Positions 2,851 to 17,256 of a stretch of 20,000 nucleotides of DNA are shown in pieces. Source of the DNA: an uncultured virus (IMG/VR IMGVR_UViG_3300011113_000633) (lineage: Duplodnaviria; Heunggongvirae; Uroviricota; Caudoviricetes); IMG/VR virus record IMGVR_UViG_3300011113_000633, one strand, 5' to 3'. Numbering within the stretch: position 1 is the stretch's first letter; every line of letters begins with the position of its first letter. Position numbers and translations under genes: made by a program. The notes under the pieces are model-generated. The model was not told the origin of the DNA and did not search any database. It worked only from the letters and a program-made list of their open reading frames with translations.

Positions 2851-3528
2851 ATGAATCAGTTTGTAATACTTGGAGTAGGAAACACCTCTGAAAACATCAT
2901 AGAAGATTGTTTATTTGATTTGCCAAAGGACAGTATGTATCACATTTATACATACCGAACAAATTTGGAAGGAGTGTGCCGAGTCTACGATTGGTTGTTA
3001 GATAACAAAGCATCGTACATTGCGTATCACAATAACACAGCACCAGTAATGTTGACTAACGAAGCAACTAAAGCAGTTGAGTCAACCATAGATGAGATGA
3101 TTGACGTGGCGCGAAATATAAAAGCCACTGTTCTTTACTTATGGAACGACAAAGATGAAGTGGAGTCCGAGAAAGACGTAACCAAATTAATTGATAGCGG
3201 ATTACGTGTTCTTGACTTAACACAAGGTCTTACCCCATTCTTAATTGTTGACAACAAAAAAGAAGTAAACGACACTGTTGATTCTCTTAAACCAGTTACT
3301 CGTGAAGAGTATGAAGAGATGCCGTTGGCTTCGCTAAAACAACAAGCAGCAGCACATGGTGTTCCAGATAATAAACTTAAATCAAAAGAAGAAATGATTG
3401 AAGCATTGATAGAAGAAATGACAGCAACAGTGGTAGTTATTACTGGAAAGTTAGCCCCACTAGAATATCCAAAAGTATTTAAAGTTACAGAACAAGTAGC
3501 ACAACAAATAATCAACGACTTAACGTAA
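2851..3528 (+). CDS. Hypothetical protein: alpha/beta (possibly SLOG-like) domain plus Rho-N/HeH-like helical motif
   Basis: RBS AAGGAG upstream. YEEMPLASLKQQAAAHGVPDNKLKSKEEMIEALIE matches the helix-extended-helix (Rho-N/SAP-like) pattern. Confidence 0.55.
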   Translation: MNQFVILGVGNTSENIIEDCLFDLPKDSMYHIYTYRTNLEGVCRVYDWLLDNKASYIAYHNNTAPVMLTNEATKAVESTIDEMIDVARNIKATVLYLWNDKDEVESEKDVTKLIDSGLRVLDLTQGLTPFLIVDNKKEVNDTVDSLKPVTREEYEEMPLASLKQQAAAHGVPDNKLKSKEEMIEALIEEMTATVVVITGKLAPLEYPKVFKVTEQVAQQIINDLT

Positions 3529-3532
3529 TTAC

Positions 3533-3610
3533 GCAGGGGGACTGGAGGCGGAAAGGAGGTAGAAAAACCTCCAGCCCACACCCTGCTCAGCGTTCGGACA
3601 AGGACGCTGA
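3533..3610 (+). ncRNA. Putative structured RNA / cis-regulatory element (long stem-loop plus second hairpin)
   Basis: GCAGGG(3533-3538) pairs with CCCTGC(3581-3586) and CTGGAGG(3542-3548) with CCTCCAG(3568-3574). Hairpin TCAGCGTTC-GGACAA-GGACGCTGA at 3587-3610. The element is a GC-rich island in an AT-rich genome. Confidence 0.55.
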
Positions 3611-3644
3611 AATCAGTTTATCAAATAGGACGAGGAATAACACG

Positions 3645-4157
3645 ATGGCAAAAAGTAAATTTTCAGGACCGTTTCTACCCTTCCCACGTTGGGTACTTCA
3701 ATATCTTGGCAATGACTCAATCAGTAAAGTAGTATTATTAACTGTATTACTTTACATGGATGCTGATACCCAAGAACTAACAACTTCGTATGGACACGTA
3801 GCCAAATTGACTGGCTATTCGCGCAGAACCATCATTCGTTCTGTCAACCGCTTAGTTTCTGCTGGTGTCCTTATTCGTAAAAACCGTTCGGGCAAGCATG
3901 GAAACATCAGCAATAAGTACATCGTAAACTTTAACAATCCATCTACCCTAGTGTCTGCACAGACACCACCTAGTGTCCTCACTGACACCACTGGTAGTGA
4001 CACGTCTGACACCACCCCTAGTGTCCCCAGTGACACCCAATCAAGAATAACAATAAACAAGAATAACCATAACAAGAATCTCTCTTTCAAGAAGGAGAAA
4101 AAAAAGGACGAAATTACAAATGGTTACGTTATAGACGAAACGCTATTGTCAAAATGA
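3645..4157 (+). CDS. Replication initiator, winged helix-turn-helix (lambda O/replisome-organizer-like)
   Basis: The wHTH motif TSYGHVAKLTGYSRRTIIRSVNRLVSAGVLIRKNR..GNISNKYIV is followed by an iteron-encoded T/S/P-rich linker. The gene lies upstream of the DnaC-like loader and DnaB. Confidence 0.8.
   Translation: MAKSKFSGPFLPFPRWVLQYLGNDSISKVVLLTVLLYMDADTQELTTSYGHVAKLTGYSRRTIIRSVNRLVSAGVLIRKNRSGKHGNISNKYIVNFNNPSTLVSAQTPPSVLTDTTGSDTSDTTPSVPSDTQSRITINKNNHNKNLSFKKEKKKDEITNGYVIDETLLSK
3949..4037. repeat. Four palindromic iterons TAGTG(T/A)C-N6-GACACC (putative replication origin)
   Basis: Units start at 3949, 3971, 3995 and 4019 (spacing 22, 24, 24). The core GTGTC-N6-GACAC is an inverted repeat; unit 3 has GTGAC in the left arm. 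Confidence 0.85.
4038..4106. repeat. A-rich putative DNA-unwinding element with CAAGAA repeats
   Basis: CAAGAA occurs at 4042, 4058, 4073 and 4088 (period 15-16) in a strongly A-rich, strand-asymmetric tract right after the iterons. Confidence 0.65.
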
Positions 4158-16965: not shown

Positions 16966-17256
16966 ATGTCTCAAGAACTAAACGCAAACATTGACGATTT
17001 TCTAAAAGTCTCTGGAAGTAGCAGTCCACAAAGTGTTGGCTCAATCATTGCTCGTGCTGTCAATGCAGGGCAGTATCCAAAGATTCGCGCTATTGGTGCT
17101 GGCGCTGTAAACCAAGCAGTAAAAGCATGTGCTATTGCTCGTGGTTTTGTTGCACCAAGAGGATTAGACCTCGTTTACATCATTGGATTTGATGATATTA
17201 TTGGAGAGAACGGTGAAAACATCTCAGCAATATCATTTAAACCCGTAGTGAGGTAA
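16966..17256 (+). CDS. spoVS: SpoVS-family protein (Alba-like fold)
   Basis: LKVSGSSSPQSVGSIIA...IRAIGAGAVNQAVKACAIARGFVAPRGLDL...ISAISF is a near-canonical SpoVS signature. Confidence 0.92.
   Translation: MSQELNANIDDFLKVSGSSSPQSVGSIIARAVNAGQYPKIRAIGAGAVNQAVKACAIARGFVAPRGLDLVYIIGFDDIIGENGENISAISFKPVVR

Follow-up and report, generated by a model that had tools for sequence, protein, structure and literature searches.

A conserved candidate RNA gene with a 16S-tail loop beside the replication initiator of a probable actinophage

In the gap directly ahead of the replication initiator gene of an uncultured phage, we find a conserved and covarying candidate RNA gene on the minus strand, which by its sequence is of the CU-rich-loop sRNA kind. 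We put at about 0.55 the probability that the predicted product is a trans-acting anti-Shine–Dalgarno (SD) sRNA that would dampen mRNAs with strong SDs, likely those of the early genes and of the initiator. To our knowledge, few regulatory RNAs of lytic phages have been characterized. The window, by which we mean the whole stretch of 20,000 nucleotides analyzed here, forms the end of a virus record 72.4 kb long and 77% complete. The features discussed below are, in window coordinates:

2851 to 3528, plus strand: upstream gene of 225 aa, function not assigned by homology, convergent with the sRNA's 3′ end
3533 to 3608, minus strand: predicted 76-nt sRNA, with +1 at 3608 and an inferred 3′ end near 3533
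3589 to 3608, minus strand: 5′ hairpin P1, whose loop has UCCUUGUCC at 3604–3596 (from pairing and covariation)
3567 to 3586, minus strand: long stem P2/P3, 5′ arm, which includes a 3-nt bulge (from pairing and covariation)
3550 to 3566, minus strand: 17-nt open pyrimidine loop UUUUCUACCUCCUUUCC, in which ACCUCCUUUC (3560–3551) is identical to 10 nt of the 16S tail
3533 to 3549, minus strand: 3′ arm of the long stem P3/P2 (from pairing and covariation)
3615 to 3623, minus strand: extended −10 promoter-like box TG-A-TAAACT, hexamer from 3620 to 3615, in invariant columns of the alignment
3628 to 3636, plus strand: ribosome-binding region of the initiator, GGACGAGGA, a candidate target complementary to the P1 loop over 9 bp with one G-U
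3645 to 4157, plus strand: lambda-O-like HTH replication initiator, gene 1 of the replication operon (Pfam HTH_36; PHROGs 428, 270 and 678)

The phage probably infects an actinobacterium, because the best matches of its DNA polymerase among annotated phages are the Streptomyces phages LuckySocke, Alone3 and BRock (32% identity), because it has the gene order dnaC-dnaB-primase-helicase-polA and a sporulation-protein gene in common with BRock, and because two WhiB proteins are encoded by all four near-complete relatives, one of which has a 98% identical initiator. WhiB is absent from the phage's own 77% complete record. Relatives of the initiator were found neither in cultured phages nor in GTDB genomes, and the 225-aa upstream gene has no match in Pfam, PHROG, NCBIfam or Atlas. 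Within the replication operon, a SpoVS-family gene occupies 16966–17256, a placement similar to that of the BRock 'sporulation protein' gene. Inside the initiator gene, at 3947–4037, lie four imperfect palindromic 21-nt repeats, CCTAGTGTC-N6-GACACC, with spacings of 22, 24 and 24, followed by an A-rich stretch; judging from this arrangement, they are a probable lambda-type replication origin with iterons. The segment G000:C1:1-1340, at the end of the early cluster, is GC-rich and repeat-rich (CACGCG/GTGACG units, with a G7/C7 hairpin near 1190-1215) and is a possible genome end or packaging region.

As the earlier note had described it, the gap that holds the candidate gene is long and GC-rich: at 3529–3644 it spans 116 nt, more than any other gap among the 30 main ORFs (the runner-up is 36 nt), and its GC content is 61.5% vs 40% for the genome. 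The strong pairing claimed there is also real: folding exceeds chance on both strands (z of −3.56 for plus and −3.78 for minus), each of which beat all 200 of its shuffles, and the predicted 76-nt minus-strand RNA reaches a z of −4.22. The sequences from which that note assembled a two-state plus-strand RNA all lie where it put them, namely an outer stem GCAGGG/CCCTGC at 3533 and 3581, CTGGAGG at 3542, AAAGGAGGT at 3552, GGAGGT at 3555, ACCTCC at 3567 and a second hairpin at 3587–3610. The SD it called an orphan is one, since the plus-strand AGGAGG lacks a start codon in 19 of the 19 homologues tested, the copy caught in L036 and L037 being the upstream one rather than that of the loop. A leader peptide downstream of the plus-strand SD was ruled out, there being no start codon. 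The second hairpin lacks a U-tract, as had been said: a scan of 3300–3900 for L-shaped intrinsic terminators (a 3–8-nt loop plus a U tract) found none on either strand. Rfam, a search of which the earlier note had proposed, contains no family that fits the element, a search of the window returning nothing at E ≤ 1 and a search of 3450–3700 returning a chance lncRNA match alone (E 0.69).

Read on the minus strand, the predicted RNA folds into a 20-nt hairpin followed by a 17-bp stem with a 3-nt bulge, at the tip of which is the loop UUUUCUACCUCCUUUCC. This loop carries ACCUCCUUUC(U), the tail of actinobacterial 16S rRNA, which upholds the anti-SD match previously noticed on this strand. The core of the loop is open with a probability of at least 0.98 in all 19 homologues, and the open state is ahead by 4.4 kcal/mol. 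The sequence GGATCACCTCCTTTCT, the mature 16S end, is present in 180 of the 301 Actinomycetota genomes searched (173/294 when seven unpublished genomes, all seven of which matched, are left out), and the genomes without it are probably incomplete assemblies; the tail sequence is also found outside Actinobacteria. Among relatives of the window, the loop holds the 9-mer CCUCCUUUC in all 24 close loci and all 17 of the L039 type, and the full 11-mer of the 16S tail in 17 of the 24 close loci, the window itself matching 10 nt. The loops of ten far loci are CU-rich and lack this 9-mer. Across nine genomes, the 9-mer occurs zero to two times per genome.

The structure is conserved among relatives of the initiator. 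Searches with this gene led to 77 distinct upstream regions, two truncated loci being excluded, and sorting by eye gave 51 with the element, 21 without it and 5 set aside (one truncated, four remote matches). The 51 carriers, whose initiators are 45 to 100% identical, consist of the 24 close loci, the 17 of the 140-nt L039 type and 10 from three further clades. With near-duplicates and L033 excluded, the close clade gives 17 distinct sequences, over which the minus-strand structure shows 99.1% pairing and 11 of its 20 pairs are compensatory, with changes on both sides. None of 500 shuffles reached this level, a count that is not a p-value because the structure was derived from the tested sequences, which are moreover related. 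The P2 and P3 stems are 100% paired, with 9/16 pairs compensatory, and the P1 hairpin is 95.6% paired, with 2/4; UGUCC in the P1 loop is invariant in alignment A4. The structured-RNA candidate of the earlier note is supported insofar as the structure is conserved and covarying and the SD/anti-SD loop is conserved. A looser DNA pattern recovered 38 loci, and the 17 not previously covered yielded one further close relative (L149), one locus that led to a second clade described below (L140) and 15 without a model match. Two complete relatives lack the element at the initiator, and neither the model nor the 9-mer revealed a copy elsewhere in them, apart from one coding match, an absence that is not proof because the model is insensitive at that distance; model R1 likewise had no match in the 32-kb replication region of BRock. 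In G006, the second match is a run of proline codons. A different conserved element precedes the initiator in L083, L084, L120, L123, L125, L126, L128 and L129, where a long hairpin and then CTGAGCAA(C/T)CAAC, or a close variant, lie between divergent genes; five of these loci share a minus-strand extended −10 box.

Four lines of evidence, namely the −10 box, the pattern of G-U pairs, the far minus-strand matches and a sense copy after ssb, favor the minus strand and point to an RNA encoded opposite to the strand first proposed, very probably transcribed from the minus-strand box. All 51 element-bearing loci have the pattern TGnTAnnnT on the minus strand once, no more than 70 nt from the initiator start, against a background of 6.5% of random 70-nt windows and 5 of 21 element-less loci; no plus-strand occurrence was seen near the initiator start. 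In leaderless genes of this phage family, the hexamer-to-ATG spacing is 6 nt in 26 genes, 5 nt in 8 and 7 nt in 8, a tally from 638 genes in which the 6-nt peak alone is informative, since the caller rewarded spacings of 5–8 nt. Because of this peak, we place the predicted +1 at 3608, which coincides with the base of the small 5′ hairpin. The corresponding base is a purine in 42/51 loci, and the first paired base lies at most 2 nt from it in 41/51. A TAnAnT box stands 5–7 nt before the ATG of many genes (G000:C1:1338, 2071, 5233, 9098, 15254 and others), and these genes are predicted from their sequence to have leaderless mRNAs.

Read as minus-strand RNA, the long stem contains 24 G-U cells across 6 columns and no mismatches in P2/P3, and these cells would be A-C mismatches on the plus strand. 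A strand-symmetric count gives 35 G-U on the minus vs 14 on the plus strand, and the minus fold is the more stable one in 39 of 45 loci; in the L066 clade, the plus strand folds better (3/3 loci). The single U-G pair that the earlier note had read as favoring the plus strand does not bear this weight, as it sits in the non-conserved inner part of the small hairpin. A model built from the close clade only picks up 10 far loci, all on the minus strand (E from 3e-4 to 1e-2, rough values), and hardly detects the L039 type. In the second clade, for which 21 loci were fetched and 17 examined after 4 near-duplicates were dropped, the loop recurs in 6 of the 17, carried by stems of unrelated sequence and lying directly after ssb on the mRNA strand; there are 5 model matches, and G-U pairs are again on the pyrimidine strand. 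These hairpins sit between ssb and polA (L228:2206-2282, L229, L230, L233, L234 and L236) and may be 3′-UTR-derived, because no promoter of their own is seen. The lone RNA-seq run containing words of the window (33%) has a contig spanning 3439–3874, and such contigs tell neither strand nor level. With the promoter, the G-U pattern and the sense copy all indicating the minus strand, the proposal of the plus strand as the RNA strand is not supported; from the list of roles offered at the time, the anti-SD sRNA is supported and the plus-strand switch, decoy and standby site are not.

On the plus strand, nGGACA lies 17–19 nt upstream of a degenerate hexamer that overlaps the minus −10 (3595–3624), and the L039 type has a good plus-strand −10. 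From these sequences, 3595–3624 is a possible bidirectional promoter, in which the plus copy of the UGUCC loop might serve the initiator as a −35 box instead.

As to what the loops might bind, the early-cluster start regions are the top computed partners of the RNA in five of five genomes, 'early' being a presumption for small co-oriented genes located by homology and position. The bare 16S tail equals the RNA's early-gene enrichment in all genomes but G003, and the enrichment in the window's clade therefore shows just that early SDs are strong. AGGAGG precedes 4/24 early genes vs 1/118 others in G001 and 6/23 vs 0/129 in G002. In G006, the cognate RNA pairs less well than all four other RNAs; in G003, it outdoes all four others (p ≤ 0.0014). 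The G003 RNA has an extra inner loop that is the exact complement of CTGAGGAG. In that genome, CTGAGGAG precedes the initiator, 11 of 21 early genes and 2 of 128 others; in the four other genomes, none of 82 early genes has it. The motif tests were chosen after inspection of the data. The start-associated motif there is CCTGAGGAGG, ahead of 11/21 early-cluster genes (G003:C1:22888-34863). No repeated start-associated motif of this kind was seen in the window's own clade.

The initiator itself is the candidate target of the smaller loop. Its start region has a computed pairing of 9 bp in the window and 13 bp in L036, and in the L039 type the pairing involves an inner loop; it is clade-specific in these three clades and missing in the L007/L014, L016, L033 and L045 clades. 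Among the start regions of its own genome, the initiator ranks 3/101, and in other genomes 1/90, 3/149 and 5/150, with low ranks in three more (44/152, 18/144 and 22/105); all gene starts used here come from an SD-aware caller, which is partly circular. Two further candidates were rejected. The primase start region ranks high (2/101, 2/90 and 1/144) owing to the Glu-Val-Glu codons of the helicase tail, and its match recurs in phages that lack the RNA and fails to follow the loop. Early enrichment of GGACA as evidence for the P1 loop is non-specific, since G006 shows the enrichment too and G003 shows it at a borderline level, UGUCC being absent from both RNAs.

In the mechanism we favor, host RNA polymerase would transcribe the 76-nt RNA (3608 to 3533) from the extended −10 promoter, and the stems would keep the two loops open to pair with SD regions in trans, chaperone-free, as in 6C sRNA. 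The likeliest targets would be the phage's early-gene cluster, where most of its AGGAGG-type sites lie, and the neighboring initiator, on which the small loop would act. Once enough RNA had built up, it would turn down the strong-SD early genes and the initiator and so act as a timer; leaderless and weak-SD genes would be spared, and strong-SD host mRNAs would be affected too. We advance with considerably more hesitation, as a possibility we rather doubt, the wider proposition that actinophages encode a dedicated RNA copy of the 16S tail that vies with the ribosome for SD sequences and serves as an RNA-only early-to-late timer of translation, shutting off the host in part and leaving leaderless and weak-SD genes alone, and that its accessory loops co-evolve with the start-associated sequences of each phage.

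Other explanations of the same element fare less well. The minus-strand RNA might act in cis and restrict read-through into the replication operon, either in the manner of a plasmid ctRNA, as a counter-transcript, or as a divergent promoter causing transcriptional interference, with a loop that merely nucleates pairing. In 51 loci the element keeps a fixed head-to-head position relative to the initiator, and its minus promoter would overlap the leader of that gene. Since the upstream gene runs in the same direction, read-through RNA would include the full complement, and the plus −10 is degenerate in the close clade. Such a role has no need of identity to the 16S tail, yet the 9-mer is kept in 41 of 51 loops while the stems vary; moreover, the other clade has the same loop in sense orientation at a distance from the initiator, and the extra loop of G003 matches 11 distant early genes. 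We regard a cis role as unlikely.

We give similarly little credence to a protein decoy, in which the RNA, as a mimic of the 16S 3′ tail, would sequester a host protein able to bind or cut that tail, for example S1, a maturation nuclease or a toxin of the MazF type that cleaves the anti-SD. A mycobacterial MazF that cuts UCCUU exists, as do phage RNA decoys of toxins. The exact tail, including its UUUCU end, is kept in 17 of the 24 close loci, and hardly any phage start region is able to pair with that end. MazF is reported to cleave the 16S 3′ end (PMC7781912). A decoy is at odds, however, with the clade-specific complementarity to phage ribosome-binding sites and with the ten far-locus loops, which diverge from the tail yet remain CU-rich.

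It is very unlikely that the element is a bidirectional I-shaped terminator or a processing hairpin that ends the upstream operon and whose loop sequence is incidental: the GC-rich stem does start 4 nt past the upstream stop, and many relatives, as well as BRock, have hairpins after ssb, mostly without a 16S-tail loop, but the loop here is 17 nt long and conserved in sequence, the terminator scan was negative, and the element has a 5′ hairpin and a promoter-like box of its own. Least probable of all is a plus-strand leader or ncRNA that toggles the orphan SD between exposed and hidden, as a ribosome decoy or standby site; the two plus states of the window are indeed within 0.6 kcal/mol (−38.1 and −38.7), as the two-state claim implied, the L066 clade folds better on that strand and a plus transcript could arise by read-through, but the alternative helix is perfect in just 8/19 homologues, the exposure of the plus SD varies from 0.19 to 0.99, the 24 mismatched cells weigh against this strand, and the purine strand of the ssb clade is antisense to genes. 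The switch is a by-product of the GGAGG arm of the stem.

If the trans-acting anti-SD sRNA is what the gene encodes, this phage tunes translation by mimicking the ribosome. The candidate gene is self-contained in 76 nt, with a promoter-like box, two hairpins and an exact 16S-tail loop, and lends itself to direct tests in Mycobacterium smegmatis or Streptomyces; it could yield a compact, chaperone-free gene-silencing scaffold for Actinobacteria.

We found no phage RNA with a 16S-tail loop in the literature searched, which included few subscription papers. The accessible portion of PMC5737381 makes no mention of one, and three supplementary files of PMC10690425 contain no match to the motif, which may be among the 8,495 unnamed candidates that this paper, in the portion consulted, reports. 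Actinobacteria are described as lacking Hfq and ProQ, and their chromosomal 6C sRNA (B11) as having two hairpins with pyrimidine-rich C-run loops and as binding, without Hfq, the purine-rich ribosome-binding sites of several mRNAs, including that of the replication gene dnaB (PMC6486639, in the sections available). Our candidate resembles 6C in its presumed actinobacterial cytoplasm, two hairpins, pyrimidine-rich loops and computed ribosome-binding-site pairing. Unlike 6C, it is phage-encoded, has a 17-nt loop with the exact 16S tail and is unmatched by the Rfam 6C model, and in place of loop runs of about six C it has the loops UCCUUGUCCGAA and UUUUCUACCUCCUUUCC, with a longest C run of 2. 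Its mode of action would be like that of 6C sRNA, although it does not belong to that family.

The C4 antisense RNA of phages P1 and P7 lies on the same strand as its target, is co-transcribed upstream of it and is processed. Like C4, our candidate is a phage RNA. The loop complementarity of C4 to the ribosome-binding region of a neighboring gene has a computed counterpart in the window, L036 and L039 clades, but not in the L007/L014, L016, L033 or L045 clades. Our candidate differs in having its own promoter-like box on the opposite strand, a 16S-tail loop and many possible targets, and has no match to Rfam C4. Cuckoo/CcsR and RsaE/RoxS are chromosomal sRNAs of other phyla with CCUCCUCCC or UCCC motifs and tandem hairpins, the CCUCCUCCC motif of Cuckoo/CcsR being repeated in 2–4 tandem similar hairpins. 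They, too, display an anti-SD-like motif in a loop, whereas our candidate has a single CCUCCUUUC loop, dissimilar hairpins and no Rfam match. T4 RegB, which removes early mRNAs from translation by attacking the SD, is a functional analogy only, being a protein nuclease and not an RNA.

Going by the portion of PMC3203893 available, the nearest described phage feature is the SAS of cluster K mycobacteriophages, a motif that overlaps the ribosome-binding site and is repeated before non-structural genes. Its authors left open whether RNA or protein binds it, and no partner RNA is described in that portion. The SAS differs in sequence from the motif of G003, and the window's clade has no such repeated motif; like the SAS, however, CCTGAGGAGG recurs at gene starts, and its complement is carried in the G003 RNA. 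An RNA with a 16S-tail loop is a possible answer to the question of the binding partner and, if the wider proposition above is true, would be the RNA partner that has been missing for SAS-type motifs.
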